The translations under genes were made by a program, and so were the position numbers. Positions 19,748-40,568 of a stretch of 47,647 nucleotides of DNA are shown here, piece after piece (the stretch's first letter is position 1; every line of letters starts with the position of its first letter). Where the stretch lies: the NCBI GenBank assembly GCA_021163225.1, contig JAGGXE010000063.1, positions 1 through 47,647 on the forward strand, given 5' to 3'. Under the pieces are notes generated by a model. It ran no database searches. It was not told the origin of the DNA and saw only the letters and a program-made list of their open reading frames with translations. Source of the stretch: Candidatus Micrarchaeota archaeon (GTDB taxonomy: Archaea; Micrarchaeota; Micrarchaeia; Anstonellales; JAGGXE01).

Positions 19748-22700
19748 TTACTCGCCAGAGGATTCGATCGGACTTACTGGAGATGCAGGAGTGGTACCGC
19801 CGAGATGTATGCTGAAACTGCACTGTACACCGGTCCCCCATTCTGTCGTGTCTCCGAAGTGTTTCCGTTCTGAATACCATCCGCCGCGTGCATAGAAGTT
19901 TCCGCGCAGTCCGAAGATGTTGAGCGTGCCGCCAGCCCCGACGCCTACCAGGAACCAGTTCCGGTTGTTATCCTCATTGATATAGGTAGTGTACCTATCC
20001 TCAACGAACGCCCAAACATTAACCTTTTCATCACGGTATAACGTACTGGCGACTTGGGCTTCTGTTTCTCTGGATGTTCCCACGTTATAAGTATGACTGA
20101 TCATCAAACTTGGATAATAAAGTCCAAGGTTGTACCATCCCAAACTCAACCTCCACATATCAAGTTCGTTGTACATACCCCATCGTTCAAAAGCTATCCC
20201 TGCCTGGGACCAATGCGGAACAGTATCGAACCACAATGCTATTCCTTGATATGTCGGCGAATACCTGAACTGTGTCACCGCTCGGTTTATAAAGAAAGGA
20301 TGATGAACGTTTAACTGTGCAAGGATGAAAGGCATCTTTTCACCGTACCTGTCAGCCATGCCGAGACCCAGACCGCCCGCATCCACGTACAACCCTTTCG
20401 ACAACCTCATCGTACGCAACCATGACAGGTTCACGTAACCTCTTTTTTCAGCAGTCGTAGATGTAACGTAATCTTCGTAGTATGCCCCGACAACCATACC
20501 GTTATCCCTGTCCACCATGAAGGTAACGGCCGCTCTGTTTCTCTCGGAAGTTCCGGTAACACTACGGTAGACCTCTCCTGCCATCCTGCCCGCGCTAGCA
20601 TAACCTTTGATTGCCTGGTACCCTTCCGTTTTATGAAGGTATCCTGCTAAGTACAACGCACGGTCCATCCTCAAACTCCCGCCGGTCAACCATCTATCAA
20701 CTCCATCGTTAGTAAACATGTAGTATCTCATTCTACCGTTCTCCCATCGCACATCGCCGCCGCCACCGTACAAACCGTCAAACCCGGCCGCCTCCACTCT
20801 TACACCTTTATCATCAACAGTATAGTTGAACCCGGCACCCCATTGAGTGCTCAGACCTTCTTTCTCGCCTGCAGGGTATCCTTCTTTAATACCCTTCGTA
20901 TAATCTTCGCCATAAGCACCGTAAACAGACAGATTCCCCATACTACCTGCAACCTGGACAAAGTTGTGAGCAGGCACACGGTTATCAGACGGGTACTGAG
21001 AGATCCATCGTCCGCCCCATAACCTCAACCCGGGTGCTCCGTACCACATATTATACAAAGGAAGCTGGGTATCGAGAGCGAACCGTTCAAACCGCATACC
21101 GCCATAGGACTCTGGGTAATACCTCAACAAACCTATCCCCGCCTGATGCACGGTACCGAACAACAAACCCCGTCCGTAGAACGGATTATACTGAAGGTCC
21201 AACCGTCTCCTCCATCGGTCGTACCCGTAGTATATGGAATACTCCTGAGCACTCATGTTCAACCAATCGAACCATGAATAGAATGTATTATGAACGGTTG
21301 TAGTCATATCCTGGGTAACTGATGTTTGATAAAGATGGGTTTTCAACCATCCTCGCATCAAAGACCATTCCGGATTTCTGGCAAAAAGGTCGGCACCGGC
21401 GTAAGCATTCCTCAAAGTAGTCTGCTCTTCTTCAGTAGTTACAGACCTACCCCTCCATTCTATGTTCCCTTTGTACCAACCTGGTCCGTAATCGGCGACA
21501 AAGCCCAGATTACCGCTCCCTTCGATATCAAGGGTGCGACTGGTTACCTCCCCCTCCTCCTTCACTTCGGTTATTCCGACCTTTAACAAACTTGTAGATG
21601 TTTCGTTGGCGGACAGTGTCGGCTGTATACGAAGCTGTTTCTCTTTAGCCTTTCTTGCAGTATTGTTATAATTCAGTTCAACGGGTCCTGCTTCATCGAA
21701 CCGTAACACGTATCCGCCGTCCTCTTTCTCAACCTTCGGAAAGAACACGATTACTGTAGCATTTTTCGAATATATCGATTCGTTATCCGGTACCGGAACC
21801 TCCCCCGGAACAACCGTTGCAGGTTGCCCGTCGATCAACAGGTTACCTTCCTCATCAACGGTTATTGTGTGATAATAATGGGGTTGAGCAACTTCCTGTT
21901 CCTGTGGGTATTTGATGTAAACAGGCAACCTCTGTACACCCCCCTCAGTTAACTTGTAATCTGCGGGTGATTGCACCTGCGTGACACGTTGGCTCGGATA
22001 GGATACCGACGGCACAGCAGTGATCATGTACACGTATCTGCGTTTGAGGTCCAGAACCAGATAACCGTCGGATGTCGACCTTACATTCTCGCTACCGAAG
22101 TATACGAGTTGTTTGTTTTTGAGTTGCTGTATAAACTCCTGCACCTCTTTAACATTCTTATTCGCAAGCTGATAGGTTATATCGTAAGCGTCGCACAACG
22201 TCTCCAGGGGAGGTCTCGGGTCGATGGAGAAAAGGAGCGGTGCGGAAAGTCCGTAGAACGTCTTCATCATCTTCACAGACTCCGGTGTAAGACCTCCTGA
22301 TGCTAAGATGAACAGGTCGTCCATACCCACCAATCCGTAAACCTTCGTATATTGTCTCAGAAACTCCTCTGATATCTGCAACGCGTTACCCCATTGGCCG
22401 ATAAGATAGTTTACGTTCTCAGCCATTTTTGTAGTTTCGTTCTCTGCATCGCTAAAATCGCAGTTGTCAACCATACTATCTATCAGATTGTAGAAAACGG
22501 ATTTTTCATTCTCCGTCATTTCGCCCTTCCGTACGAAAGAACTTAGGGAATTATCCAGCGCATCATCGAACGATTCGCCCTGAGCCATCCTGTCCGCAAC
22601 ATCGGTAAGCACAGTTGACACAACCTCTATGAGCTTATGTTTACCGTAGACACCCTGATATTTGGTTGCCCAATCGTACCCTGATATCTGGTTTAAGAAG

Positions 22701-24106
22701 TGTTGGTACACTGTTTCGCCGTCCCGATAGTCCGTGCTCTCAGAACTGATAGCCACCGTGGAAAGGTCAACAACATCTTCATAGTTGGATATAGAAGTAT
22801 ATTCGTAACTTGAACCGTAAATGGTTAGACGTATCTCTTCCAAACTTCCGTGCGCATCGGCAATAAGAAAAGGTATGGTGTTAAACAGAAACTCTCTACG
22901 CACAGAAGGGTTAATAATCTCGGTAACGTTTAAAACCCATGGGGATATCACCCATTTATTCTCATCGGGTTCGGTCCTGGCGTTATCGTATTCTTCCATC
23001 CTTCGGTTCTTCAAGTATTCTGTATCTATGAGGATCATCCCATTGTCGCGGTAGGTATACCAGTTATTAAGTCCTCCCTCCTCGGTACCCAAAGGGGTTG
23101 CAGTGTTCAGCAGTTCGGACATCAGTAGAACAGCATTCCCGTGATGATACTTCTCCAACTCGGTTAACTGTTGAAACAGACCTATGTATCCCTTCTCTTC
23201 CTCAAACTTTTCGGAAGCCACACTTTTAAGGTCTTTGTAAGGTAAAAATGTCAGAAGAGCGAGGTAATCCGCTTCAACGAGTGCCCGCTGTTTCGGGGAC
23301 ATCCCTACATCCAGCAGCATTCCGTCGAGTAAACGGACCTGTCCGACGATGCGTCCGCGTTCATCCTCATTAAGTTGCGGGAATAGGGAGTCTACGGTCT
23401 CATCGATGTTGAAAACCATACTGCCCACGGGTTGCGGTGTTATCTCACCAAGTTTTGATCTCTCCTTGGACACCTGTCGACCCGCGGATTCAAAATATTT
23501 GAGTGCATTATCCAGTCCGTTATCCTGAATGAGCTTGAGAACCGCTAACGACCTGTTCTTATACTTTTTGTAAGGTTTAGTCCAATCCTCATCCAACTCG
23601 TTGTTATAAAAGACCGTTAAACCCTGTTTCTGCTCTTCGCTCAGTCGGACACCTTTGTCCTCAAGATACTCAATCCATCGGTCAACAGTCAACCGTCCTT
23701 TGTATCCCTTCTTCTTTTTCCATGCCTGAATATCTTGATTGGTGATAGAAACCTTTTTCTTCAACGATTCCGAACCCAAGGGTACCACCCGTTTGAAATA
23801 TGATACATAATAATTTTTATACCTTTGTCCACCTTCGTCTTGCCCTACTTCACGATACCCGCTCTGCTCTCTCACCCGACCGTTAACACCGGTAGCATTA
23901 GAACTTCCGAGAACGGGTACAGATGTAAGCAAAACGCTCGCAACCAAGATCTTAGAGATAGGTCTAACAACCCTGCACGAAGCACGTTTTAACCACGACT
24001 TATATTTTGTCTTGTACATCGACGCGTCCATCGAAACCATCCTCAAAACATGTTTGCAACAGTTGACCGATCGCAACAGCCGACCGATGAGTTTTGTGGT
24101 TATCAC
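19748..24106 (-). CDS. Giant exported protein (up to 1452 aa), function unknown; C-terminal about 580 aa rich in Gly/Tyr/Trp/Arg (beta-barrel-like)
   Basis: Uninterrupted 4.36-kb ORF with core-like composition. Signal/anchor-like segment KRASCRVVRPISKILVASVLLTSVPVLGSSNA. The probable true start is M26 or M30 (24031 or 24019). I recognise no domain. Confidence 0.85.
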   Translation of the reverse strand: MITTKLIGRLLRSVNCCKHVLRMVSMDASMYKTKYKSWLKRASCRVVRPISKILVASVLLTSVPVLGSSNATGVNGRVREQSGYREVGQDEGGQRYKNYYVSYFKRVVPLGSESLKKKVSITNQDIQAWKKKKGYKGRLTVDRWIEYLEDKGVRLSEEQKQGLTVFYNNELDEDWTKPYKKYKNRSLAVLKLIQDNGLDNALKYFESAGRQVSKERSKLGEITPQPVGSMVFNIDETVDSLFPQLNEDERGRIVGQVRLLDGMLLDVGMSPKQRALVEADYLALLTFLPYKDLKSVASEKFEEEKGYIGLFQQLTELEKYHHGNAVLLMSELLNTATPLGTEEGGLNNWYTYRDNGMILIDTEYLKNRRMEEYDNARTEPDENKWVISPWVLNVTEIINPSVRREFLFNTIPFLIADAHGSLEEIRLTIYGSSYEYTSISNYEDVVDLSTVAISSESTDYRDGETVYQHFLNQISGYDWATKYQGVYGKHKLIEVVSTVLTDVADRMAQGESFDDALDNSLSSFVRKGEMTENEKSVFYNLIDSMVDNCDFSDAENETTKMAENVNYLIGQWGNALQISEEFLRQYTKVYGLVGMDDLFILASGGLTPESVKMMKTFYGLSAPLLFSIDPRPPLETLCDAYDITYQLANKNVKEVQEFIQQLKNKQLVYFGSENVRSTSDGYLVLDLKRRYVYMITAVPSVSYPSQRVTQVQSPADYKLTEGGVQRLPVYIKYPQEQEVAQPHYYHTITVDEEGNLLIDGQPATVVPGEVPVPDNESIYSKNATVIVFFPKVEKEDGGYVLRFDEAGPVELNYNNTARKAKEKQLRIQPTLSANETSTSLLKVGITEVKEEGEVTSRTLDIEGSGNLGFVADYGPGWYKGNIEWRGRSVTTEEEQTTLRNAYAGADLFARNPEWSLMRGWLKTHLYQTSVTQDMTTTVHNTFYSWFDWLNMSAQEYSIYYGYDRWRRRLDLQYNPFYGRGLLFGTVHQAGIGLLRYYPESYGGMRFERFALDTQLPLYNMWYGAPGLRLWGGRWISQYPSDNRVPAHNFVQVAGSMGNLSVYGAYGEDYTKGIKEGYPAGEKEGLSTQWGAGFNYTVDDKGVRVEAAGFDGLYGGGGDVRWENGRMRYYMFTNDGVDRWLTGGSLRMDRALYLAGYLHKTEGYQAIKGYASAGRMAGEVYRSVTGTSERNRAAVTFMVDRDNGMVVGAYYEDYVTSTTAEKRGYVNLSWLRTMRLSKGLYVDAGGLGLGMADRYGEKMPFILAQLNVHHPFFINRAVTQFRYSPTYQGIALWFDTVPHWSQAGIAFERWGMYNELDMWRLSLGWYNLGLYYPSLMISHTYNVGTSRETEAQVASTLYRDEKVNVWAFVEDRYTTYINEDNNRNWFLVGVGAGGTLNIFGLRGNFYARGGWYSERKHFGDTTEWGTGVQCSFSIHLGGTTPASPVSPIESSGE

Positions 24107-25642: not shown

Positions 25643-25715
<73 letters not shown>

Positions 25716-25733: not shown

Positions 25734-27398
25734 TCATTCCTTAGGCGTATGCTGTTCAACGAACTCTTTTGTGTACTTCTCAAGTATCCGTACCCATCTC
25801 GGTTTACGAACCCTGTACAACGACCGTCTGACTTCCTCCCTTTTATCTTCGGTTCCGCTGCTCTGGACTTTGCGTTTCTTTTTCCACGGTTTATCTATGA
25901 CATATACCCTACGGTAGGCCGCTTTGAACATCTTCCATACGAACGGCAACCATTCCTTATATTCTTCATCGGTGAAGGTTTCTACAAACTCGAACAACTG
26001 TTTTGGCCATAGATCAATGTTCTTCCAATCGATTTTCGGGACTTCTTCGCCCGCCTCCCTCCTATCTCCTGCAACGTCCGACACAACACTTCTAACCAAC
26101 CATTTAAGTTCGTAAAACTTCGTGACCAGGTCAAGAGCCGCCAGGTATCTCCTGTATTCTATCAGGTTTTTACCCAAACCATCCCTTATAAAATCCGAAT
26201 AATTTCTGGGCCAATGATAGGGGTCCATATGTCTCTGTTTCGGTGGTAGGATTTTGTAGAGTTCTACATACAGTTCGATACATCGTTTGAAATATCTTCT
26301 GACCATCAATGCAGCAAACTTTTCAGCATTACCGACGTCACCGACCTCTTTCGTAAGTTTTATCAACCACTTCCTCGCATCACGCAACCCTTCGCGAGTA
26401 CCGTCTTTGAAATACAGTCCTAACAACGGTTGCGAGAATCCCCATCCGTACTCCTGATATTCTAGAAGGATCTTCAATGCAGCAACCTTCATAGGCATAC
26501 CTAACAACGTGTAAGCAACCATCTCTTCCCCGGTCAGATAAGAGTATAACGGATGTTCGCCTTCTATGTATTCTTCTGGTGATTCGTGAAACGCATAGGA
26601 ATTCAGATAGACAAGTCCGTCGATAAGTTCATCCATGAGATAAGTCAGATATTCTTCCGGCGTCCGACCGGATTCTGTAAACTGTTTCCACCGTTTTTTC
26701 ATCCTTCTTAAAGACATCCCGGATTTGTCCGTGATCACAACCTCCCATCCGCGCGTGTCTTCACCTGCTACATTGATATCTATAGGCGGTGCTACAGGCG
26801 GATGTTTCACATTGAAAATCGGGTCGTAACCTACATCCTCTTCGTCGTATTCAGGCAGGATGGTAACGCGTTTAGTCAATCTGTTAACCTTGACACGGTC
26901 AGGGTCGTACAACAGGAAACTGAGCGTCTCGATGTACATAAACTTTCTGGCTACCTCACCCAACTTCTTCTTCAAATTCTCATCATCGCTATGCTCTTTC
27001 AACTCTTCGCGAAGACCGGTCAGCCTATCGATTACATCGTTACGGGTATCGAGAACCCTGTTGTACACAAGGTTGAATGTTAGAGAGACGAGTTTACGTC
27101 TCGACTCCCGCGTTGTCTTAGGGAGTATTTCTGCAAACCTGTCCTCCAGTTGCTCCGCTAACCGTAGCAAAACTTCATCGGGTGCGGGATAATCTTTCAG
27201 CCGCGTCATAAACGCGGAAACGGACCGGTTTATCTCAGCGAGACATCTGACCGCAAGTTCAGGGTTACCGACAATCTTCTGAATCGCAGTAACCCAAGGG
27301 TTATAATCTGTGAGAGGGATCATCAAAGGTCCTTTGCGCTGTTCAGACCCTGTCCTTCCTTTCTTTTCAGCCTTTTTCTTGCTGGCTACCGCGTCCAT
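25734..27398 (-). CDS. 554-aa soluble hypothetical protein (last gene of the four-gene operon)
   Basis: Long ORF with core-like composition. The ATG lies 5 nt after GAGGTGA, which overlaps the stop of the upstream gene (4-nt gap). No signal peptide, TM helix or motif that I recognise. Confidence 0.8.
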   Translation of the reverse strand: MDAVASKKKAEKKGRTGSEQRKGPLMIPLTDYNPWVTAIQKIVGNPELAVRCLAEINRSVSAFMTRLKDYPAPDEVLLRLAEQLEDRFAEILPKTTRESRRKLVSLTFNLVYNRVLDTRNDVIDRLTGLREELKEHSDDENLKKKLGEVARKFMYIETLSFLLYDPDRVKVNRLTKRVTILPEYDEEDVGYDPIFNVKHPPVAPPIDINVAGEDTRGWEVVITDKSGMSLRRMKKRWKQFTESGRTPEEYLTYLMDELIDGLVYLNSYAFHESPEEYIEGEHPLYSYLTGEEMVAYTLLGMPMKVAALKILLEYQEYGWGFSQPLLGLYFKDGTREGLRDARKWLIKLTKEVGDVGNAEKFAALMVRRYFKRCIELYVELYKILPPKQRHMDPYHWPRNYSDFIRDGLGKNLIEYRRYLAALDLVTKFYELKWLVRSVVSDVAGDRREAGEEVPKIDWKNIDLWPKQLFEFVETFTDEEYKEWLPFVWKMFKAAYRRVYVIDKPWKKKRKVQSSGTEDKREEVRRSLYRVRKPRWVRILEKYTKEFVEQHTPKE

Positions 27399-27402
27399 CT
27401 TT

Positions 27403-30288
27403 TCACCTCTTCATCTTTGTCGAATGATAGATAACTTCTCCGCTCACCACGCCTAAAGGTGTAACGTACATATCGTTAGGCAACCCGTAAGCCGAGAGTA
27501 TCTCAGGCCAACTCCTGCCCGGGACACTGATCTTTTCCAAAAGTTCTGGGTCGATCCTATCCATCGCTTCCAAAAGGCTCATACCTTCCGGATTGGTGAT
27601 GTACTGCATCTCAGACATCCTGAGGTTTTCAGGAATATTATCCAGGTCAAAACCCATCCTGCGAATCTCCGACCTTACGGCGTTGATCTCAGGCGACTGA
27701 ATATCGCGCCAGACAACCGACCTGTAGAACCCTATCTCTTTGTTACTGACCTGCGATTCTAACGCTTCCGGAGAAGCTATCTGAACGATTTTCGGATTAA
27801 ACTCTACACCTTTGACTACCTTACCGATATTCTCAGACCATCGGTTAAGGAACTGGTTTACGTCCGCATCTTCGGGCAAAGCCACAATAACTTCTGAAGT
27901 ACCTTTCACATAGAAACTCGAACCCTTCGGAAGTGAGAGTGCCAACGTCTTCCGATTGACTTCAATGACATCATCACCTATATCGTGACCTACGTTGTTG
28001 TAAGCAGTAAACTTCACCACGTCCTTCTCAAGAGGAGCGCTCGCTTTACCGCTGTGATGTCCGGCCGCTTCCATCAAAACACTTTTGACAACTTTACCCT
28101 CAGAAATTCGAGCGACCCTGTAACGTATCTCAATGTGGTACACCTTCTTACCTGCCTTCACTTCTTTCATTATAAAACGCCGGACATTGCCTGATTTTTT
28201 ACCGGTCATATCCACTTCCATGTTCTTAAGTTCTTCGAGCGGTTCAACGTTGAACAGTTTAGGTTTGAAGGTTTCATAATTGGGTGACTCTGCCTCTGCA
28301 AGCACGCCTACCACACCTTTACTCTCAAGTTCTCCTACATTGGACACAGTAATAGTGTAATCCGCACCTGTTATCTTGTCAACCGTTGATTCTGTCATAC
28401 ACCCTTTATTTATTGCAGGTTCATATAAAGTTCTTTCGGCACGTTTCATCAAACTGTTGGCTTCGTTGATCACCTTCTCAACCTCTGTCTTAGGTGCGTT
28501 GGTAACAAGGTATATCTCATCACCGCCTTTACCGCCAACAGAAACAACGTACCCTGCCTTTTTGAGTTGTGCAGCGACGTAGTTAACCATCTTCTTCTCT
28601 TGAGTGAGTGCTGCATCACCGACCTTTTCATCGAACGTGTTGTTTATCATACTCAACCTCCTCTTGTCAAACTGTACACATGTAACCTTGGTGTTTCTAT
28701 CAAATCCTTTGTTTTCAAACGCTTTAACCACGTCTTCGTTCAACTTCTCATTATCTTTGTACCATTTCACTTTTCCGGAAGAAGCCATGTATTCGATGTT
28801 TGTTTCTCGTATCTGGGAATATGTCCTGTACATCATCTTACCTTCACCGTAAACTCCTGCGGTAGTGGAAGCGATGAGAAGACCTTGGAAGAGCACCGGC
28901 AAAAATACCGATTGATCCTGAGCGGAGAGTTCACCGTACATCCTGGCATTCATCTCGGTACCTCCGATGTATACTGACCCCATCCCTGCGATACTCGTTG
29001 CACCGCCGATAAACTTAGTGCCTAAAGCAACCTTCCCTGCCAGTGTACCCGATTTGGATAACAGTTTAAACCCTGTCGCACCTGCACGACCCGCAAAGGA
29101 TGCAGAAAGCAGGAAAGAACCCAAAGCAACCTGTGTTTCCGCAGACGATAGGTCAAAAACCCCCATCTTACCCTGATGAGCCAGTTCTGCCGCAGACTCG
29201 GCCGCGAAATAAGCGTTACCGCTGTAAATGAGGATTGCACCGACAGGTCCGCCGACACCCGTAAGCATCAAACCTGCACCTACAACGATCGCACCGCCTG
29301 CCAACAGGTCGTCCATCCATAACTCGCCTTCCTTCTCCAGATGTATCCCGTTCGGTAACGCATAGAATCCGCGGGGTAACTTGCCCTCCTTCAACAGGTC
29401 GTAAACCGCACTGTAAATCGTGTTATCGGAAACATCCTGAGAAAACGTATACTGCTCAAGCGTCTTGGGAAACACTTCCCTTCCTCTAATCTTTGCACTT
29501 TTATCTACAACACGTTTGACACGTTCCCCTGTGTAAGGGTCGGCTACACGTACGGTTATCCCTTCTTCCTCTGTAGTCACACGAACGAGGAAAGGCACCG
29601 CGTCGATCAATACCCCGTCACCTGCCTTGCGAACACGGATCACAGGTAGAACGATCACTCCCTTTTCATCGAAATGCTCTTTGAACAGATACCTGTTACG
29701 CAGGTCTTTAATATCTTCGTCAGATAACCCAAGGTTATGCAACGCCTTCTCATATCTTTCAGACAGTATCAATGACGAATCGATCATGTTCAACTTCTTC
29801 ATGACAAGTTCTTTTGTAGTGACTCCGTTAATCACAGTGTTATACACGTCGTACCCTTTTGAGAGTTCTGTGGTTGTCTCTCTGTACATCTGATCGGCCG
29901 GTTGTGATTTGGTCTCAACAGCAGAATAATCCGATTCGGCGTGAGTGAACTCCTGTGTTTCATAACTCTGCTCAGGACTCGGAACCTCCGGTACCTCGAG
30001 AAGAACTGGGCGTATGGCATCTAACGTTTTATGGAAGGTGGTAACCAGTTCCCTGTCGCTCATGTTGTTAAGGTTGGACAGTGTTGTTTTGTCAAGGTTA
30101 CCGTACTCTGTAAGAAAAAAGATGATCCTGTTACGTAACTCGGTTCTCCGACGCGCCGCGCGCTCGTCTTCGACGAGCGCGCGTTCCCGTGCTTCTGCGA
30201 GATGTTCCAGTTCTTCAACATCGCTGGTTAGAAGAAGCGCCTTCATGAACACAGATTCCCTCTCCTTAGTTCTCTGGACAACCGCCAT
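27403..30288 (-). CDS. 961-aa membrane protein: N-terminal soluble region, Gly/Ala-rich hydrophobic core, C-terminal region with a GGDEF-like motif
   Basis: The ATG at 30288 (MAVVQRTK) follows GGAAGGTG. The ORF-track start is 30306. Hydrophobic glycine-zipper block at aa 334-487. INNTFDEKVGDAAL...GGKGGDEIYLV at aa 554-601 (numbering from the ORF-track start). Confidence 0.85.
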   Translation of the reverse strand: MAVVQRTKERESVFMKALLLTSDVEELEHLAEARERALVEDERAARRRTELRNRIIFFLTEYGNLDKTTLSNLNNMSDRELVTTFHKTLDAIRPVLLEVPEVPSPEQSYETQEFTHAESDYSAVETKSQPADQMYRETTTELSKGYDVYNTVINGVTTKELVMKKLNMIDSSLILSERYEKALHNLGLSDEDIKDLRNRYLFKEHFDEKGVIVLPVIRVRKAGDGVLIDAVPFLVRVTTEEEGITVRVADPYTGERVKRVVDKSAKIRGREVFPKTLEQYTFSQDVSDNTIYSAVYDLLKEGKLPRGFYALPNGIHLEKEGELWMDDLLAGGAIVVGAGLMLTGVGGPVGAILIYSGNAYFAAESAAELAHQGKMGVFDLSSAETQVALGSFLLSASFAGRAGATGFKLLSKSGTLAGKVALGTKFIGGATSIAGMGSVYIGGTEMNARMYGELSAQDQSVFLPVLFQGLLIASTTAGVYGEGKMMYRTYSQIRETNIEYMASSGKVKWYKDNEKLNEDVVKAFENKGFDRNTKVTCVQFDKRRLSMINNTFDEKVGDAALTQEKKMVNYVAAQLKKAGYVVSVGGKGGDEIYLVTNAPKTEVEKVINEANSLMKRAERTLYEPAINKGCMTESTVDKITGADYTITVSNVGELESKGVVGVLAEAESPNYETFKPKLFNVEPLEELKNMEVDMTGKKSGNVRRFIMKEVKAGKKVYHIEIRYRVARISEGKVVKSVLMEAAGHHSGKASAPLEKDVVKFTAYNNVGHDIGDDVIEVNRKTLALSLPKGSSFYVKGTSEVIVALPEDADVNQFLNRWSENIGKVVKGVEFNPKIVQIASPEALESQVSNKEIGFYRSVVWRDIQSPEINAVRSEIRRMGFDLDNIPENLRMSEMQYITNPEGMSLLEAMDRIDPELLEKISVPGRSWPEILSAYGLPNDMYVTPLGVVSGEVIYHSTKMKR

Positions 30289-30353
30289 CGTTAAAACACC
30301 TTCCAAAACAAAAGTGATGAAACGTTACAGTAACCGAAGGAACTGCGCAACAG

Positions 30354-32966
30354 TTACAGATAATCCTCGCAGATCAGTTCTGACAGGCATCTGATATAAC
30401 AGATTGCTTCGTTGTTCGTCTCGTTCGATTCTACAATCTTACCTGTAGCATCCGCAGTAACGTTGTATATGTAAGTACCGGGTATTTCGCATTTGTAATC
30501 AAAGGTGTCCACCTGATACCAATCCGGCGGGCGTTCTCCACCCGGCCACACAACATCCGTGTATAATGGGTTCAGCCTGCCTATGTTAAACTCTATCTTG
30601 TCACTGTCTATTATAACAGTAGTGACCGATTCGTTCGCTATCGCATCGCCGATGTTCGAGGTGTTGATATGCACGGTAACTGTCTCGCCGAGCGAAACGC
30701 TCACGTTCTCACACGACGGTACAAGGTCGGGTTGTCCGGATCCGGGGGCACACAGATTACAACTGTAGAAACATAACTTCTCATTATTACCTTCGTTCTC
30801 TTCAGAAACGTTATCGGTCGCATCGGCAGTAATCTTTAATATATATAACCCTTCCTCCGTCGGGGTGAAATTGTAAACAGATCCGTTCCATACCTGTAAC
30901 GGCGGGAACGCACCATCCAGTGTTCTGGTTGGAGTTGTGCAGCTGCCGCATGTAGAAGATGCGTTTGTACAATATATTTGGTTCGGCATCAAACTAGAGG
31001 TTAACCAGCCGCGTCCTTCTTCGCACACGAACAATGGATCACAACTCGGTAATGCCGGCAACGTGAAATTTTGGTCATCTACAAGGTTTGAAAAATTGTC
31101 TTTAAACAGCATAACGCGTAACGTGCTTTCGTTCTCAACGCACGTATCACCGTAATGCACAGGTATGTGCAAGAGATAAGAATGATTCACATAACATTCT
31201 CCAAGGTATCCTGGTTCTTCCCAGGGAGGTGTGGGACATTCCGGCCATATGTCGCGGTGCGGTACCGAACGCGCATGACATCTAACAGATATCGGCTTAC
31301 AATTGTTAAGTTCGTTGCTCTCAGTAACATTATTGTTCGCATCTGCGCATATTCGGAAGGTTGCATCCACCCATTCACTTTCATTAGCGTAGCATGTAAC
31401 GTTTATCACAACTCCTGAGTAAAATTCACCTGATGCAAGTGGAGGGACTTCCTGGTCATAGGGAAGCAGAGGCGTGACATCAACCCAAGCATCAGATGGT
31501 GACACACTTTCCAGAGTTATCCGCGTGATCGACCAGTTAGAGGCGTTTCCATTCCCTATGTTTCTCGTATAGTAATGTATCTGAGTCCAATTTCCACCAA
31601 CAGAAGGCGCAGATACATTAGTAATAATGTAATCCGGGAGGTTTTCCACATGAATGGATACATCTACAGTGCCGTTTTCACCATCGCTACAGACAACGCT
31701 TTCGTTCTGATAAGTGACATGTAGAGTAACAGTATCAACCTCACCAAACCCGCTTTTGCAAACATCTGTTGTTATGGTAACTCTGGTCCCCGCTGGAACA
31801 GGTATACGCACGGGTGATGTTGAATATGTAAACCCGTCGCAGTTTGCACCGTCACAGGATGCAGATACCACAGTAACATCCAGTGATGAGGGCGAGACGG
31901 TCACATCCGTTACAACCGCATCCGCACCACCGTTATTGATAACGGTCACATTAATATCATGAATACATCCAGACGTGTCAAAACTCGGATCAGCCACACT
32001 CACACCAGGAACCTGCACGTTGATATGCAGGTCACGAATCGTGATATGAAACTCTTCGGTAGCATGAATATTATGTGACAGATCTTTCTTGAAATACCAG
32101 TTTTCACATGAACTAGAATAGCCGCCTCTGGAAGGGTCATTACAGAACTCAACAACGAAATATCCATCCCCACAATTACCTACTCCCGAACCCATAGCTT
32201 CTCCTGCATACAACGCTCGAAGTTCTGAATACGATGCTTTGATCTTGTATGTTTTTCCATCATCAGAAGAATTAAAAGTAAAATCGTTATTCAACAGGTC
32301 CAGATAGGTATCAATGTTTTCAATTTCACTACCCGTATTCTCATCGATAAGACGAAGGTTGAAAGGAACATACAGAAACAGCCCCAACTTACCTTTTCCA
32401 GTAAACCCTTTGGTAGGGTCATCTGTCTGAGTGAAATACCGTGCCTGTACATCTGAGAAATCAGAAGAGAATCGACCCCCTACATTACATGAATCATGAT
32501 ATATAGACCAAAACCTTACCGGCCCCGGACACGTCCCATCAAAAAAAACATGCGTATCAGCATCGACTACTGCCCGAATTGTAGAACCACCACCGGAAAC
32601 TGCACAATTCTCGGGATCAGGTATATAGTAATAAGGAAAGTTCATAGATTCCATGTTCACGTTAACAGAATCCGGAGTATACTCAACATGAACGGTGCCC
32701 GGACACATCTCGATATTATGCTCTTCAAAACTGCCGTTTAAAACGATCGCATCTGTAGAAATCCGATATCGCAATGGCATTGTAAATTCGTCTGATTGAA
32801 TATATATATCATCACCCACAGCACAACAGGCAGGGTTATTATAATAATAAAGATATACCTCTGGAAGATAGACGCTTGTGCTAACTTCGTAGGAGTCTGA
32901 AGAATTAACAACCGTTACGGCTAGAAAGAAAAGAAAGAATAGATATTCAAACCTTTTCCCTTTCAT
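30354..32966 (-). CDS. 870-aa secreted Cys-rich protein with CARDB-like repeats (putative adhesin / surface protein)
   Basis: Signal peptide MKGKRFEYLFFLFFLAVTVVNSS. About 34 Cys and more than 20 N-x-S/T sequons. At least three modules end in the CARDB-type motif D-A-x-x-x-V-x-E-x-N-E-x-N-N (ADANNNVTESNELNN, ADATDNVSEENEGNN, ADATGKIVESNETNN). GAGGTGG SD 7 nt upstream overlaps the stop of the preceding gene. Confidence 0.9.
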   Translation of the reverse strand: MKGKRFEYLFFLFFLAVTVVNSSDSYEVSTSVYLPEVYLYYYNNPACCAVGDDIYIQSDEFTMPLRYRISTDAIVLNGSFEEHNIEMCPGTVHVEYTPDSVNVNMESMNFPYYYIPDPENCAVSGGGSTIRAVVDADTHVFFDGTCPGPVRFWSIYHDSCNVGGRFSSDFSDVQARYFTQTDDPTKGFTGKGKLGLFLYVPFNLRLIDENTGSEIENIDTYLDLLNNDFTFNSSDDGKTYKIKASYSELRALYAGEAMGSGVGNCGDGYFVVEFCNDPSRGGYSSSCENWYFKKDLSHNIHATEEFHITIRDLHINVQVPGVSVADPSFDTSGCIHDINVTVINNGGADAVVTDVTVSPSSLDVTVVSASCDGANCDGFTYSTSPVRIPVPAGTRVTITTDVCKSGFGEVDTVTLHVTYQNESVVCSDGENGTVDVSIHVENLPDYIITNVSAPSVGGNWTQIHYYTRNIGNGNASNWSITRITLESVSPSDAWVDVTPLLPYDQEVPPLASGEFYSGVVINVTCYANESEWVDATFRICADANNNVTESNELNNCKPISVRCHARSVPHRDIWPECPTPPWEEPGYLGECYVNHSYLLHIPVHYGDTCVENESTLRVMLFKDNFSNLVDDQNFTLPALPSCDPLFVCEEGRGWLTSSLMPNQIYCTNASSTCGSCTTPTRTLDGAFPPLQVWNGSVYNFTPTEEGLYILKITADATDNVSEENEGNNEKLCFYSCNLCAPGSGQPDLVPSCENVSVSLGETVTVHINTSNIGDAIANESVTTVIIDSDKIEFNIGRLNPLYTDVVWPGGERPPDWYQVDTFDYKCEIPGTYIYNVTADATGKIVESNETNNEAICYIRCLSELICEDYL

Positions 32967-32980
32967 TCAAAACCACCTCT

Positions 32981-35900
32981 TCAAGGTAATGGAGTTTCTT
33001 GGGACTTCTTCCTCCTAAAAACTCTACGTGGTGAAACAATGAACTCTAAACTCCAACTCTCTGTGTTGAAATCATAACCGAACCCTAACCCTGCCGTCCA
33101 GTTCGAAACACCCGGAATCGGCAGACCACCGAATATAATCTTTGCCTGTGAAACCTTCTTCGGATCCTTGAAATCATTAGAGTAGAGATGTATTCCAGTT
33201 TCAACTCCTTTCCTGGTTCTCCAGAACATACCCACTCCTCCGCGCACAGATATTTCCTTCTTATCCGGATCGTACCAAATCATCGGCATACCATATCCGC
33301 GGATATACTGCGAACCAACGCCTATTGTGCCACTGAACATAGGCGACCAATTCCCTTTCTCATCTCTGTAGAACTGTATCATCCACCCATCTATGCCAAA
33401 CCATCCAGTCACCTTCTTTACAGCACCTAACGTTACAGAATAGTTGGAACCCATCTTAACTTCCAGGCTTAACTCATCCTCTTTAGATTCTACAACAGGT
33501 ACTTGACGATAGAAGAACATCGCAGAATAGTTCCACCCTCCATGAGATACAACATCTGCACGTACAGAACCGTATGCCCCATGTAACTCATCTTTCATCG
33601 AATCTGCTATCTCTTTAAACTCTTCATCAGTAAGAATGACTACTTTGTTATAGGTAGTAGCACCTCCACCGATAGTAATGAGGAGGGCATTTATTCCTAT
33701 CCCTTCACCCCATTTCTTCAATGACTCCGACGTAGCCATAAGGTCGAAACTGAATTTGCCACCTATCGTTTTCCCAGGCACATATTGGCAAATCATCGAA
33801 GACAACTGGTAACCTATAGTATCTGATAACAAACCTCCCTCGCCGAACAATCGCTCAACCGCTTCGTCTAGAGATATCCTCCCGTCAATCAAGTCATTAA
33901 GTACATCTTGAACTTCACTCCAAGTATGGCCACCCGCGTTCCCACGTTCCCACGCATCTTTAAATGTAGTCCCCTCAAGGTCTACGTTACCTAAGGCGTT
34001 TACAGCGTCTCTAAAACCTTGCTTATCGCGTCTTGCATAGGCAATTGTAAGTTCTTTCATGGCTGCCTTTATATCGTCAGTAACTGTTGGAAGATAGGTA
34101 GCTGTATGAGCTTCGAAAACTTTAGAACTTCCTTCACCGATTGCGGGTTGCACTGGAGGAACAGGCACTTCCATCGTTTGGTATCTTTTGTTCAGGTTTA
34201 TCGTTGCGACCAACGTACGCTTACCGATTCTGCATCTGTCATACCCGTTGTTTGTAGGCGTAGCATACACTTTGTACGTTCCAGGACCGCCTTCGCGATA
34301 CCACTCAGAGAGGTTGAATTTTTGTGTGAAATTCTCATCATCTTCCCCTGTCCAAACACCTGCCACTTCAATAGTCTTTCCATCAGGACTTACAATTTCA
34401 TAGGTAAACCATGTGTTATACCCAGGTACAGTACCACTTTTTTTCTTTTCTTTACTTTTAAGTTCATAATCTACAGCAAACCCAAAGTTAATCTCTGCAT
34501 ATACGTTTTCCACAGGATTACCGTTCTTATCCACGTTTATGTTGTAATCACCTATGTCTACCAAGTCTTCAGTAGATGTGACTATCCCGCTTTTCTTTTC
34601 ATCGACGTACAGCAACATATCCAGTGTAACCCAAGGAACTGTACCCAAGAATTTGAACTCAGGAATATAAACGCACTTAGAACCTGTTTTTTCCAGAGTT
34701 TCTATTATTTTGTCAACCTTCTTCTTGTGCCCTTCGTAACCTTTTTCTTTCGGATCATGACCTTTCATCAAGAACTCACGATATTCATCACGTTTAATCA
34801 GTAAACTGAAATCTCTTCCAATAACACCGATACCCATCTCACCTATTTCGTTAATTCTCTCTTCACTCACTCCCGCCTCTTGCAATTTTCTTTTCACGTC
34901 TTTCCAACCACCCTTCTTCTCTTTAGCCTTCTTTTTAGCTTTCTGTCCGCCGACCGCACCGAGTATTCCAACAAGAATGTACGGATGGGTACAAACATTT
35001 TCTATCTGCTCTTTAACTTCTTTATCAGTCAGGCCTTCTTTAATCATCAAGCTGTTAACCAGCGGCACGTAGTTATATTTATAGTTGCCTTTTTCATCTT
35101 GAACAACTATACCCTCCTCAATTAATGTTTGTAAACGTTCCTCATCTTCTATTGAACAATCATTGTTCATAATAAGCTCCACTAATAGATTCACAGCTTC
35201 CTCATGATGTTCGTCATCTTTATTGTAGAGGTAAGATTCAAAATTGCCGAAGCTCCATTCTTTCTCATCCAACATATCATACAACCTATGTAAAAGAACC
35301 ATCTGCTGTCTGAACGCTTCGACATGAGTCTCAACATCGTAGTTTTTATTTGTCTTATGATGTTCCTCTGCTGCTTTTCTTGCTACATTATACATCTTTT
35401 CTACTGAACCCAACAACCACCAATGTTCTACATCGTGGTCTTTTTTTGCAATGTTATCCATCTTCGTCAAAACTTCAGGACCCAAAGAGAGTAAGGCAAC
35501 CATCTGCACCCTATAATTCTTGCTTTCTGTAAATTTAGATCTAAATTCTACCTCCCTATCTTTGTTAATGAACTCCACAGCCAACCTTGTCTTAATAACA
35601 TTTCCTTCTTCATCTGTTTCTTCGATGAAGACAGGTCTAAAGATATCGTGCCCAAAGAGAAGCTTTGAATCTTTAACAAGCGAATAGAATGCTTGGTCAC
35701 AGTAATATTTTAGATAAAAATCAACTGTCATACCTTGACGCATATCGGCAGCACTTATCCTATGCCCTCCGCTTATGGTTATATTTCCACCGGACAATGG
35801 GGTTAACGGAGATTCCAATTCATGGAGACCGAACTTTTCCCAATATAGTTGTAAACGGAGTGCTTGATACCATGCTTTAAAGGATTCTGTGCGTGGGGAT

Positions 35901-36175
35901 TCTAAACTGTAACGAAGATGGATATCAGTTTTGTGCAGGAACCCTTCACTGAATCCTAATAAAGACGGATTAAATGTAGCATTACCCATTATGAACTGTG
36001 TTATCCAGTAATCTGGATTATTTATCAAATCTTCGAGGTTATAGTACATTGTCTGTTCTGCCTGCTGTTGTTGTTCGGCCTGTTGTTGGACAGGTGTTGG
36101 AACTATCAGAGAAAGATTTCTCTTCTCCTCACCTTTGGTCTCAGCCTCGGCATATTTGAAACCGGTATCAACCAT
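32981..36175 (-). CDS. 1064-aa hypothetical protein (first gene of the four-gene operon), C-terminal beta-rich aromatic/Gly domain
   Basis: The ATG at 36175 (MVDTGFKY) lies 8 nt after GGAGGTG. The ORF-track start is 36214. It has a Q-rich linker (QQQAEQQQQAEQ), a helical middle, an Ig-like-looking segment (GTYKVYATP) and a Y/W/G-rich C-terminal about 170 aa. No N-terminal signal peptide is obvious. Confidence 0.85.
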   Translation of the reverse strand: MVDTGFKYAEAETKGEEKRNLSLIVPTPVQQQAEQQQQAEQTMYYNLEDLINNPDYWITQFIMGNATFNPSLLGFSEGFLHKTDIHLRYSLESPRTESFKAWYQALRLQLYWEKFGLHELESPLTPLSGGNITISGGHRISAADMRQGMTVDFYLKYYCDQAFYSLVKDSKLLFGHDIFRPVFIEETDEEGNVIKTRLAVEFINKDREVEFRSKFTESKNYRVQMVALLSLGPEVLTKMDNIAKKDHDVEHWWLLGSVEKMYNVARKAAEEHHKTNKNYDVETHVEAFRQQMVLLHRLYDMLDEKEWSFGNFESYLYNKDDEHHEEAVNLLVELIMNNDCSIEDEERLQTLIEEGIVVQDEKGNYKYNYVPLVNSLMIKEGLTDKEVKEQIENVCTHPYILVGILGAVGGQKAKKKAKEKKGGWKDVKRKLQEAGVSEERINEIGEMGIGVIGRDFSLLIKRDEYREFLMKGHDPKEKGYEGHKKKVDKIIETLEKTGSKCVYIPEFKFLGTVPWVTLDMLLYVDEKKSGIVTSTEDLVDIGDYNINVDKNGNPVENVYAEINFGFAVDYELKSKEKKKSGTVPGYNTWFTYEIVSPDGKTIEVAGVWTGEDDENFTQKFNLSEWYREGGPGTYKVYATPTNNGYDRCRIGKRTLVATINLNKRYQTMEVPVPPVQPAIGEGSSKVFEAHTATYLPTVTDDIKAAMKELTIAYARRDKQGFRDAVNALGNVDLEGTTFKDAWERGNAGGHTWSEVQDVLNDLIDGRISLDEAVERLFGEGGLLSDTIGYQLSSMICQYVPGKTIGGKFSFDLMATSESLKKWGEGIGINALLITIGGGATTYNKVVILTDEEFKEIADSMKDELHGAYGSVRADVVSHGGWNYSAMFFYRQVPVVESKEDELSLEVKMGSNYSVTLGAVKKVTGWFGIDGWMIQFYRDEKGNWSPMFSGTIGVGSQYIRGYGMPMIWYDPDKKEISVRGGVGMFWRTRKGVETGIHLYSNDFKDPKKVSQAKIIFGGLPIPGVSNWTAGLGFGYDFNTESWSLEFIVSPRRVFRRKKSQETPLP

Positions 36176-36296
36176 TTTGAGTACACCTCCTTTTTTTAAC
36201 AAACATTCCTCCACATTTCCTCAACAAACGTTTATATAAAAACATATTCATTTTAAAAAGATACCGTTTTAAACAAAATGGTCGATTAACCTATCC
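36176..36296. promoter_or_regulatory. Divergent promoter region (four-gene operon / gltX)
   Basis: AT-rich spacer with TTTATATAAAAA (about 36230-36241) and TTTTAAAAAG / GTTTTAAAC boxes. The latter lies about 25 nt upstream of the gltX ATG. Confidence 0.35.
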
Positions 36297-38114: not shown

Positions 38115-40568
38115 ATGATGAAACGACAAAAGAAACGTATCTGCGATAAAAGGGAACAGAAAAGAACCGGACCGTTCTATGACAAGGTTGTCCACGATGA
38201 TATTAAAACAGTGCACATAGAAAAATCCATCGAACATCTGAAAGAGGTACTCAAACAAAGGGGACTGCTCAGAACAAGAATGGAACAGGAAAGTTTAGAG
38301 CATCTCATCAACGGTTTTAGGTCGGTTTTTAACGACACGGACTTCCTCCGCGCTGTTGAAGAGGTCACCTATTTCTTGGAGAAGAGAAAGGATATCAGGT
38401 CCAGCACCTTTATCAACCTGCTAAGGGTACTACGCAACGAAAGCGAAAGAAAATTCGAGAACGGGTTGGCGAGTCTTTCGTACATCCACGAACTTCCTGA
38501 AAAGGACGGATGGTTATCCGAGCTACTCGAAGCAGTGTTAAAGTTTCAGAGAAGGAACGGTCTCGGACTGTTCTACGCTTCATCGTTCCTTGCAGAACTG
38601 AAAAAGTTCGGTAACGAATTTGCGGCTGCGCAAACAGTTACGCAGATGTTGAAGACGTCAGACATGGAAGAGGTGGAGAAGGCCTACGACATCATATCCG
38701 CACTCGACTCCGATAGACATAAGTATATCGGAGACGTGCTCTCTGTATTCAGGGATATACCTTTCTCCATCGATAACCTGAAAAAACTCATAAGGGTATC
38801 CGAAACACTACCGGGCATCTATGATTGCATAAGTTTCATGGACCTTATGAGAATGGCCAAAGACAAGCAGAAGATGTTAGACCTGATCTACGACAAAGCA
38901 TACATTGGACCGAGTTTAAAGATGGTGTACTTTGATAATCCGGGTATTCCGCCGGAAGATATTCTGGAAAGGTTTATCGATTCTGGTAAAGAATTCCTGT
39001 TGATAAACAGCGTAACTCAGTTCGAAAAAGCCATCGAAGCGCATCCAGACGTATTGGACAGGGAAACGATAAAACGAATCAGACAGGCACTCGAGGTTGT
39101 GAGGGAGTCGCAGGTCGGGAGACTGATGTTGTTGTGCAAAAGACACGGAGAAGTGATCAAGAGATACAAACGGATACCGTTACCTTGGTTTCTCGTACTG
39201 AACAGATACGGGGTGATGAATGAAGACCTGACACTTTTGGACAACCTACTCAGCAAACGCAACCTGACCAACTACTCACTGATTAAGGAATACATGTTCA
39301 TAATGAAAGCGATACTGAAGACCAACAAACATCTGTTCTTCGATATCATGAGTATGAAAGGCAAAGATATAACCTTCCTGGAAAGGGTAGGTGTTCTATC
39401 GTTGTACGGTGTGAAGATAAACCGACAGACGTTGAAAAGTAGCCGGTTTGACGAATACATTGCCAAACATGTGTTAGAACTGTTCGTGAAGGTGTTCAGA
39501 TTGAACAACAGCGAACGGAGCAAATTCTACAAACAAAAGGAAAGATGGCTCGACAGGAACACCGTTGTAGCATTCCTATTACTGAACCACAGTTTTGACC
39601 AGGACCTACGGGTCTATTGGAGGAAGGTTGTAAAAGAGGTTGTGAACGGCAGGTTCGATGAATGGAAAGTGAAACATAAGAATTCGGCAGAAGTTAGAAA
39701 GGTGTTGGGAAAATACGGGTTCAAGGTTTGGAACGAGGGATGGAACGAAGAAACGGTATATTTGGAAGCTGAGAAAAGAAGGGCGGTCACGAACATGATG
39801 AAAGGTGTTGTCACGGTTCTCATACAGGAACAATCCGAACGCGTGCGGGAGTTCGTTAGAGCGTGTTTGGAAGGAGATTACAAAAAGATAACGAGAATGA
39901 TTGAACGGGGTAAATTGAAAAACCATCTCGACAGAATAGTCTATGAGGAACTGACCGAAGTTTGGAAGAGGATGCAGAGAAGGATTATACATATCCCCAC
40001 GCAGATCAGAATTGTCACACTTACCGACCCGTTAGAGATCATACATATCGGAGTCAAACCGGTTTTCACATGTCAGAACTGGAAGGTTCCGACGTCACTA
40101 TCACAGGGTATATTCTCGTACATTGCCGATAACAACAAACGTATCATAGCCGTCAAAAACTCCGCCGGCACGATACTTTTCAGAGTGGTGGTACGTCTTG
40201 AAACGTACAACAACGAATCACCCTTACTGATAATCGAACCTGTCTACGGAGAATCGAGGTTCCTCCATCTATCCAAATACCTGGCGGAATACATCATCAA
40301 GTTTGCTATGAAACTTAAACGCGCCTGGGGACGCAATGTTTACATCGCTACCGGGAGCATTCATCCACCGTCCGGGAGTAAATGGATAAACAGAGAACTT
40401 GAACTACTGGCCAAGAAATACGGACTCGAACATTCCAATGTAGAGGTTCTGAAGACGGTCGGGCTCGAAACATTGACCAACGCGGATTACTCGGACACGG
40501 TGTTAGAAAACGTACAGAGCAGGAAAAAGGAGATCGGGCTCTACGACGTCCTCCTTGTGAAGGTATAG
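38115..40568 (+). CDS. 817-aa soluble, mostly helical hypothetical protein
   Basis: Long ORF. TTTATAAATA is centred about 27 nt upstream of the ATG (leaderless-type promoter). No TM helix, signal peptide or family that I recognise. The 3' end overlaps the convergent gene by 28 nt. Confidence 0.8.
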   Translation: MMKRQKKRICDKREQKRTGPFYDKVVHDDIKTVHIEKSIEHLKEVLKQRGLLRTRMEQESLEHLINGFRSVFNDTDFLRAVEEVTYFLEKRKDIRSSTFINLLRVLRNESERKFENGLASLSYIHELPEKDGWLSELLEAVLKFQRRNGLGLFYASSFLAELKKFGNEFAAAQTVTQMLKTSDMEEVEKAYDIISALDSDRHKYIGDVLSVFRDIPFSIDNLKKLIRVSETLPGIYDCISFMDLMRMAKDKQKMLDLIYDKAYIGPSLKMVYFDNPGIPPEDILERFIDSGKEFLLINSVTQFEKAIEAHPDVLDRETIKRIRQALEVVRESQVGRLMLLCKRHGEVIKRYKRIPLPWFLVLNRYGVMNEDLTLLDNLLSKRNLTNYSLIKEYMFIMKAILKTNKHLFFDIMSMKGKDITFLERVGVLSLYGVKINRQTLKSSRFDEYIAKHVLELFVKVFRLNNSERSKFYKQKERWLDRNTVVAFLLLNHSFDQDLRVYWRKVVKEVVNGRFDEWKVKHKNSAEVRKVLGKYGFKVWNEGWNEETVYLEAEKRRAVTNMMKGVVTVLIQEQSERVREFVRACLEGDYKKITRMIERGKLKNHLDRIVYEELTEVWKRMQRRIIHIPTQIRIVTLTDPLEIIHIGVKPVFTCQNWKVPTSLSQGIFSYIADNNKRIIAVKNSAGTILFRVVVRLETYNNESPLLIIEPVYGESRFLHLSKYLAEYIIKFAMKLKRAWGRNVYIATGSIHPPSGSKWINRELELLAKKYGLEHSNVEVLKTVGLETLTNADYSDTVLENVQSRKKEIGLYDVLLVKV

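Follow-up and report, generated by a model that had tools for sequence, protein, structure and literature searches.

The window analysed here is a stretch of 47,647 nucleotides (nt) from contig JAGGXE010000063.1 of a Candidatus Micrarchaeota archaeon (assembly GCA_021163225.1). It contains four consecutive open reading frames (ORFs), designated g1 to g4, all on the minus strand, which encode proteins of 1064, 870, 961 and 554 amino acids (aa), respectively, and together form a block of 10.4 kb between a tRNA-Val gene and gltX. The original prediction regarded the four products as a single surface apparatus; as documented below, it is the g3-g4 pair that is conserved, and g3 most likely carries two divergent GGDEF-like domains in tandem. 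The features of the block and its borders, in the order in which the block is read, are as follows.

36176-36296, minus strand: 121-nt divergent spacer between g1 and gltX, with a TATA-like sequence, TTTATATAAA, at 36231-36240 and a GGAGGTG Shine-Dalgarno (SD) sequence at ~36183-36189
32981-36175, minus strand: g1, an orphan of 1064 aa that matches no family and no PDB entry, with the lowest GC content in the block (0.40-0.43)
30354-32966, minus strand: g2, a predicted secreted protein of 870 aa with an N-terminal leader and a match to Pfam CARDB (E 6e-18)
31296-31637 (aa 444-557) and 30405-30734 (aa 745-854), minus strand: the two of the three CARDB stretches of g2 that were located, by Pfam
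27403-30288, minus strand: g3, 961 aa, first member of the conserved pair, studied in an alignment of three homologues
28849-29316, minus strand: "glycine-zipper" core of g3 (aa 325-480), rich in Gly, Ala, Ser and Thr, with 2-4 predicted helices, kept in all three homologues
28189-28776, minus strand: GGDEF-like domain 1 of g3 (aa 505-700), motif GGDEI, with GGDE encoded at 28516-28527
27574-28146, minus strand: degenerate GGDEF-like domain 2 of g3 (aa 715-905), with a conserved YNN-x-GH-x-x-GD
25734-27398, minus strand: g4, a basic protein of 554 aa with no transmembrane segment, second member of the conserved pair
25643-25715, plus strand: tRNA-Val(GAC), identified by ARAGORN and Rfam, convergent with g4, forming the boundary of the block and lying outside it

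The ORF listing and a direct reading of the junctions agree with the gene sizes, the orientation, the GGTG-type SD sequences and the gaps of 14, 65 and 4 nt given in the original prediction, and the borders it had named, tRNA-Val and gltX (TIGR00463, E 9e-145, divergent from g1 beyond the spacer), are also correct. The length of g1 is counted from the SD-preceded ATG at 36175 (longest ORF form, 32981-36214) and that of g3 from the ATG at 30288 (longest ORF form, 27403-30306). GGAGGTG is located 7 nt upstream of the g1 ATG, AGAGGTGG and GGAAGGTG lie inside the g1-g2 and g2-g3 gaps, respectively, and at the 4-nt junction the g3 stop codon is embedded in AGGTGA. All four genes have a GGTG-type SD at -9 to -15, and the other SDs within the window are found mainly ahead of operon-internal genes. 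The block is most likely a single transcription unit, with probable co-transcription and translational coupling, for which the spacer would provide the promoter. Scans of the window for bacterial promoters and terminators returned counts no higher than shuffled sequence, and an Rfam scan identified tRNAs and nothing else. All four are genuine genes, not chance ORFs, since pN/pS (nonsynonymous relative to synonymous differences per site) against near-strain copies is 0.26, 0.31, 0.22 and 0.05 for g1 to g4, respectively, and since distant homologues exist for g3 and g4. Purifying selection acts on all four. As the original prediction had noted, no ATPase, protease, integrase or capsid family was matched in Pfam, NCBIfam, PHROGs and PADLOC scans of g1-g4, and the Pfam and NCBIfam scans gave no S-layer, pilin, PilB or PilC match, so that no known S-layer, pilus, archaellum or virus module was recognized. 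No paralogy was detected among the orphans of the window (g1-g4, a 1452-aa ORF and an 817-aa ORF).

Word-indexed searches of 5.8 billion proteins with g1, g3 and g4 returned only the queries themselves or near-strain copies. For g3, this null result was overturned by an exhaustive HMMER search of 1.84 billion representative proteins, which gave three matches only: P0005 (1068 aa, 33% identity, E 4e-86), P0007 (991 aa, 28% identity, E 5e-54) and one fragment. The g3 family accordingly has three 50%-identity clusters among the 1.84 billion proteins. On contig L017, the g3 homologue is followed after 25 nt by a 483-aa gene and on contigs L018, L019, L020 and L023 after 60 nt by a 512-aa gene, and in both cases BLASTP shows the product of the downstream gene to be a g4 homologue (E 9e-26 and 1e-13, respectively). 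Upstream of the pair are divergent NUDIX and TYW1 genes in L017 and a divergent THUMP methyltransferase gene in L023, and neither g1 nor g2 is present in these assembled flanks. The pair therefore occurs at different chromosomal sites in three diverged lineages (L017; L018, L019, L020 and L023; the window), with GC contents of 37%, 43% and 45%; TYW1 has 61% identity between L017 and L015/L023, as has AMP phosphorylase between L015 and the window. The conserved unit is the g3-g4 pair, because a g4 homologue lies directly downstream of g3 in each lineage and g1 and g2 are absent upstream. The co-occurrence that the original prediction proposed to look for thus holds for g3 and g4, adjacent in all three lineages, and fails for g1 and g2; all four genes together are found only within the window's species, and a dedicated four-component apparatus is not co-conserved beyond it. 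The pair appears so far to be restricted to a narrow group of related archaea, the window being placed in the Micrarchaeota by its glutamyl-tRNA synthetase (GluRS) and the other two lineages by archaeal neighbour genes only. IMG/VR scans with g3 and g4, a scan of JGI metagenomes with the g4 alignment and plasmid tblastn searches found nothing.

The surroundings of the pair differ among these contigs. In L017 (7951-9114), a gene near the pair encodes a protein of 387 aa that carries a signal peptide and has FDFQIAW as its last residues, and in L018 a cut gene upstream of the pair (3-98) ends in GIGRYGYDYWITGGVRISKVGIS and a Por_Secre_tail protein is encoded nearby (5250-6218); these secreted or beta-rich neighbours have no detectable relationship to g1 or g2. 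The flanks are rearranged between L023 (3211-3412) and L018 (1-210 and 6270-6417): a 149-bp segment, 93% identical, is located just upstream of the promoter of the g3 homologue in L023 and downstream of the block formed by the g3 homologue, the g4 homologue and the Por_Secre_tail gene in L018, whereas across the pair itself the two contigs are 98% identical.

The N-terminal part of g3 (aa 1-125) is variable; it is followed by a conserved domain (aa 125-325), the hydrophobic core, the GGDEF-like pair and, at the C-terminus, a further conserved segment (NGFDLDNIPEKLR). Gly-rich hydrophobic segments of the core at aa 328-352 and 461-479 reach Kyte-Doolittle maxima of 1.76-1.92, and the core would presumably be inserted in the membrane. 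GGDEF is a bacterial domain that makes the signalling molecule cyclic di-GMP (c-di-GMP). In domain 1, D541-K542-R543, N549, G557-D558 and G588-G589-D590-E591 are invariant in the three-homologue alignment, the signature reads GGDEI, GGDEI and GGDEA across the homologues, and the domain has both the GG(D/E)EF-type motif and the associated Asp, Asn and Asp. The spacings, 8 from D to N and 9 from N to GD, are those of E. coli DgcZ, and we take these residues to be the equivalents of D327, N335, D344 and GGEEF of PleD (the metal-binding Asp and the guanine-contacting Asn and Asp). Domain 1 probably retains ligand or metal binding, because GGDE, D541, N549 and G557-D558 are invariant in homologues with only 27-33% identity. 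In domain 2, the GGDEF position is occupied by GTSEV, SPTEY or KPNEY, with the Glu alone kept, the first metal-binding Asp is not conserved and the GGDEF signature is lost.

Weak GGDEF matches in g3 fall in two separate regions, aa 518-620 and aa 755-824. With hhalign, and a small GGDEF reference alignment of six sequences built in this analysis (five E. coli proteins and one Fibrobacterota ORF), domain 1 aligned in register with P 0.0034 and domain 2 with 93.6% probability (E 2e-7, 90 columns); three control segments gave P 0.08-0.27. A phmmer comparison of domain 2 with DgcR (6zxb/6zxc) gave E 0.02-0.06. The AlphaFold2 (AF2) prediction for full-length g3 from the single sequence had a mean predicted local distance difference test (pLDDT) score of 34.7, too low for use. 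The model of aa 497-961 obtained with a three-sequence alignment has a beta-alpha-alpha-beta-beta-alpha order around GGDE, with a strand-GGDE-strand hairpin between long helices. When this model was compared with the PDB by Foldseek, a check suggested in the original prediction, many GGDEF domains were returned with probabilities of 0.97-1.00, TM-scores of 0.42-0.50 and a root mean square deviation of ~5.4 Å, including those of T. maritima, DgcB, DosC, DgcR and a V. cholerae diguanylate cyclase (DGC); tandem-ferredoxin-fold proteins and Cas10 were also listed, with low quality. The glycine-zipper core and GGDEF-like motif originally noted in g3 are present, and the motif expands to what are most likely two whole, divergent GGDEF-like domains in tandem, which points to nucleotide signalling rather than to the pore formation or adhesion first suggested for this protein. 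We regard the GGDEF-like homology and the residue conservation as established; enzymatic activity and the nature of a product would be predictions from them.

For g4, there is no family match, no PDB match with either the protein or the family profile, and no recognizable fold. Its family shares the motifs NPWV, FNLxYN, ETxxFxLYxP, IxPEY...GYDP...KxPP and a C-terminal PRWxR..KY. As neither g4 nor g1 carries an export signal, both are most likely cytoplasmic. The window's g4 is a mosaic. Compared with a lone copy of 508 aa in metagenome-assembled genome (MAG) GCA_054010795.1 (L015, 10811-11812), nt identity is 50-76% over nt 1-810 and 92-99% thereafter, and the synonymous difference per site (pS) is 0.76 before versus 0.09 after the breakpoint. 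Recombination or rearrangement breakpoints are located at ~26588 and ~25881. On L024 (4019-5019), a JGI contig from the window's species, the high-identity tract runs on into a downstream YjbQ gene, and the junction at 25881 separates the 554-aa g4 next to tRNA-Val from a truncated form of 507/508 aa next to YjbQ. The window's g4 is taken to be the complete form, and the shorter forms to be truncated, because it keeps the PRW motif common to the distant homologues. An assembly chimera was considered as the source of the mosaic and judged unlikely, as the 508-aa form is present on five contigs; it is also disfavoured by L024, which independently links g3 to the short g4 and YjbQ.

The two upstream genes are different in kind. 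As originally predicted, g2 has a hydrophobic N-terminal leader, 34 Cys, 26 N-x-S/T sequons and an unambiguous CARDB assignment (PF07705, 65.4 bits versus a cut-off of 22.7, in three stretches); the N-terminal 330 aa are Cys-rich and have no family match. A same-species copy, identified by tblastn beside the g1 copy on L001, is 86% identical and differs by indels; g2 was not searched more widely. By its sequence, g2 is a secreted, disulfide-rich and glycosylatable CARDB protein of surface or adhesion type, an ordinary DPANN surface protein. In g1, neither a signal peptide nor a transmembrane segment was found. The N-terminal half looks helical; in the C-terminus (~aa 880-1045), Gly and aromatic residues are abundant and the sequence seems beta-rich. 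The beta-barrel originally read into this C-terminus is unsupported, because there is no signal peptide and the sole barrel match, to TonB_dep_Rec_b-barrel, is sub-threshold (15.3 bits versus a cut-off of 27). The sole relative of g1 in the word-indexed search is the same-species copy on L001, with 95% identity, and no relatives were detected in scans of JGI metagenomes and IMG/VR or by tblastn against plasmids. Over codons 701-800 of g1, pN/pS reaches 1.36. The g1 C-terminus was also considered as a third conserved component of the pair and rejected, with hhalign probabilities of at most 0.4% against the neighbours of other pairs (the 387-aa secreted protein of L017, the cut upstream gene of L018 and a 379-aa protein of L023).

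Comparison with the near-strain reference, MAG contig L001, revealed that these genes evolve faster than their surroundings. The flanking genes are 98-100% identical in aa sequence, with synonymous divergence (dS) of 0.07-0.10 and dN/dS of at most 0.14, whereas aa identity is 95% for g1, 86% for g2 and 68% for the start of g3, where pN/pS is ~1 over the first 59 codons. For g2, dS is 0.245, three times that of the flanks, and pS reaches 0.32 in the 3′ half. In independent assemblies, moreover, contigs end within g2, at the g3 start or a short way upstream of g3 homologues (the L001 end, the L002 start and the L018, L019 and L020 starts). Heterogeneity between strains or allelic exchange, as surface genes would lead one to expect, fits these findings, and the recurrent breaks suggest population-level heterogeneity upstream of the conserved pair.

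The reading that we favour, tentatively and with a probability of about 0.45, is that a variable surface-protein cassette (g1-g2) is joined to a lineage-specific membrane nucleotide-signalling pair (g3-g4). The block would then consist of two evolutionarily separate parts: g1-g2 as a species-specific, fast-evolving cassette of which g2 is the clear member, and g3-g4 as a pair that, in the window's species, would have become joined behind it. The g3 protein would be anchored in the membrane through its Gly/Ala-rich helical core, with the tandem GGDEF-like (nucleotidyl-cyclase palm) domains presumably on the cytoplasmic side as an intramolecular pair. Domain 1, with the metal-binding Asp, the guanine-contacting Asn and Asp and GGDE kept, is a candidate catalytic, GTP-binding site, and its product could be c-di-GMP, made through dimerization of g3, or a linear or alternative di-nucleotide. 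Domain 2, with those residues lost, may serve as the other half of a pseudo-dimer or bind a nucleotide in a regulatory role, and g4, as a cytoplasmic basic protein, could be a partner, regulator or effector of g3, presumably in physical contact with it. That the pair and the cassette are also linked by regulation is possible but unsupported.

Several observations weigh against this reading. For domain 1, the matches to Pfam GGDEF (PF00990; E 2.5e-4, 21.3 bits versus a cut-off of 23.8) and TIGR00254 (E 1.4e-5, 24.9 bits versus 37.4) are both sub-threshold, Pfam GGDEF has no match in P0005 or P0007, the g3-family profile reaches at best E 0.34 against the PDB, and no similarity of the sort that an internal duplication would leave is detectable between domains 1 and 2. 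The AF2 model of aa 497-961 is mediocre (pLDDT 58, with 155 residues at or above 70), and the Foldseek matches have E-values of only 1e-3 to 3e-2, in an output silent on which domain matched. The hydrophobicity of the g3 core is weak, so that its insertion in the membrane, like an even number of passes, is an assumption. Within the window no EAL, HD-GYP or PilZ partner can be seen, the role proposed for g4 is a guess, and g1 is a species-level orphan without an assigned role. One MAG (GCA_054010795.1, L015) has a g4 copy without an adjacent g3; that copy is truncated at the C-terminus, and the same MAG also holds a full g3-g4 pair (L023). Archaea are described as having hardly any GGDEF domains, with contamination a possible source of those reported (PMC5847659, PMC8646023), and BLAST-level GGDEF matches have been recorded in DPANN and Asgard MAGs (PMC8646023).

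Other explanations have to be set beside this. That the GGDEF-like domains are structural relics without nucleotide chemistry, in a lineage-specific membrane scaffold of some other function, is rather unlikely: every sequence match is indeed sub-threshold, archaea generally lack c-di-GMP machinery and Ca. Micrarchaeum provides a precedent for an inactive GGDEF, but GGDE, D541, N549 and G557-D558 would hardly be expected to remain invariant between relics that share 27-33% identity. The apparatus of the original prediction, in which all four proteins act together as adhesin, pore and signalling components in DPANN-host contact, is unlikely. It would account for the tight co-oriented packing with an SD for each gene and one upstream promoter-like region, for a secreted g2 beside a hydrophobic g3 and for a strain-variable locus as expected of host-interaction genes, and the L018-lineage assemblies do break just upstream of the g3 homologue, in a cut gene with a beta-rich aromatic/Gly tail. 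Nevertheless, divergent housekeeping genes, and not g1 or g2, occupy the upstream position in L017 and L023, g1 and g2 are known from same-species copies only (with the limited search for g2 noted above), g1 and g4 have no signal peptide or transmembrane segment, and g1 has no similarity to the neighbours of other pairs.

A cyclic-nucleotide anti-virus defence module, in which a palm-domain cyclase signals to an effector (cf. Cas10, mCpol, CBASS and Pycsar), is quite improbable as an explanation of g3-g4. Tandem palm-type domains with one degenerate are reminiscent of Cas10, Foldseek lists Csm1 chains with low probability, the L017 g4 homologue has a weak Cas11b match (E 0.009) and the family is rare and patchy with recombination at the locus; against these, g1-g4 have no PADLOC match and the homologues only weak stray ones (PglZ, E 0.03, besides Cas11b), there is no nuclease, CARF, SAVED or TIR effector, no HD domain and no cas neighbour, the conserved Asn/Asp pair fits the guanine contacts of GGDEF and not the GGDD of Cas10, and a membrane-anchored cyclase would be atypical of such systems. 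We consider it highly improbable that the block is the remnant of a virus or plasmid integrated at tRNA-Val, with the orphans as element genes. The block does adjoin the 3′ end of a tRNA gene, its genes are orphans, the GC content of g1 is below that of its surroundings, g4 has a mosaic tract with 95-99% nt identity to an otherwise distant genome and L018 and L023 differ by a rearrangement of the pair's flanks. An integrated element is nevertheless contradicted by the lack of integrase, capsid, replication or partition genes and of PHROG matches, of IMG/VR relatives, plasmid matches and significant viral structure matches (BFVD), and of any direct or att-like tRNA-Val repeat within 19000-42000 of the window; in the other lineages g3-g4 lies among housekeeping genes, away from any tRNA.

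The unit to be analysed is the g3-g4 pair and not a four-gene apparatus, with g1-g2 resembling ordinary strain-variable DPANN surface equipment. The novelty sits in g3-g4, a very rare family that combines a Gly-zipper core, tandem divergent GGDEF-like domains and a fixed partner. A more far-reaching proposal, that g3-g4 is an undescribed, Micrarchaeota-restricted second-messenger module with catalytic and regulatory GGDEF-like domains, whose guanine di-nucleotide would, with g4, control the expression or deployment of g1 and g2 in host attachment, is decidedly unlikely; if true, an archaeal lineage would possess genuine GGDEF-type signalling of its own, linked to the contact of DPANN cells with their hosts. 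To our knowledge, c-di-GMP/GGDEF signalling is regarded as essentially bacterial. The g3-g4 family is chromosomally anchored and vertically diverging, with 27-33% identity between lineages, purifying selection and the same partner gene, and so offers a concrete, testable case for native archaeal GGDEF chemistry in organisms that depend on cell-cell contact.

The window is archaeal, because it encodes split RpoA and split RpoB together with archaeal housekeeping genes; the genes present include those for Spt5, FtsZ, CCA-adding enzyme, AMP phosphorylase and ribose-1,5-bisphosphate isomerase. The GluRS is closest to those of Candidatus Micrarchaeota MAGs (63%, 49% and 48% identity), consistent with the host being a reduced-genome DPANN archaeon of the Micrarchaeota, and the earlier description of it as a reduced-genome archaeon is fair. 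In gltX-anchored comparisons with the nearest Micrarchaeota (L003-L005), g1-g4 are not present and gene order is not conserved. The AMP phosphorylase gene adjoins that for ribose-1,5-bisphosphate isomerase (14292-16768), and the two belong to the archaeal nucleotide-salvage pathway. A bacterial-type QueA (S-adenosylmethionine:tRNA ribosyltransferase-isomerase; PF02547, E 3e-115) is encoded at 10712-11911, directly downstream of tRNA-Asp(GUC), a tRNA that is a queuosine substrate in bacteria. Such a QueA is unusual in archaea and may have been acquired horizontally. Two further orphans are located in the window. One, of 1452 aa (19748-24106, minus strand), is unlike g1-g4, matches nothing in Pfam, NCBIfam or PHROGs and has a hydrophobic stretch near its N-terminus (aa 50-71); the other, a basic protein of 817 aa (38115-40568, plus strand) adjoining gltX, has no family match and is 97.6% conserved relative to the near-strain MAG (dN/dS 0.14).

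Among known systems, the membrane-bound bacterial DGCs with GGDEF domains (PF00990) that were compared are E. coli DgcJ and DgcZ, C. crescentus PleD and DgcB and T. maritima TM1788. Domain 1 of g3 is in register with their D-x7-N-x8-GD ... GG(D/E)E core, the order of secondary structure elements would be the same according to the mediocre AF2 model, for which Foldseek gave TM-scores of 0.42-0.50, and, as in many DGCs, a membrane anchor would be positioned N-terminal to the catalytic-type domain. The g3 protein differs in scoring below the curated thresholds, in having two tandem copies of which the second is degenerate, and in having no recognizable sensor (PAS, GAF, REC or CHASE), RxxD I-site or Lys at the FK position; it also has an archaeal host, is ~1000 aa long and is always adjacent to a novel partner gene. 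In retaining the GH..GD helix after loss of GGDEF, domain 2 resembles the degenerate GGDEF receptors and scaffolds E. coli CdgI, PelD and PopA, and a degenerate, inactive WspR-like GGDEF in Ca. Micrarchaeum acidiphilum (PMC5847659) provides a precedent within the Micrarchaeota. In contrast to these proteins, the degenerate copy in g3 is fused behind a seemingly intact one, with no REC domain. Cas10 (Csm1/Cmr2) of type III CRISPR systems is also large, has two domains of the palm/cyclase type of which one is degenerate, and works with a partner protein that is helical. In g3, however, it is the first domain that carries the intact motif, the reverse of the Cas10 order, and this motif reads GGDE instead of GGDD; g3 also has a hydrophobic membrane core and is without an HD domain, a Zn finger, cas neighbours and a PADLOC match. 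For g2, the closest parallel is with the micrarchaeon Mia14, which has strain-specific secreted surface proteins with CARDB-like modules (PMC5498576). As in Mia14, g2 is a predicted secreted CARDB-repeat protein of a Micrarchaeota genome that is strain-variable and large relative to genome size, but it lacks PKD, Kelch and YVTN modules, begins with a Cys-rich N-terminus of 330 aa that has no assigned family, and is embedded in a tight string of genes with g1, g3 and g4.

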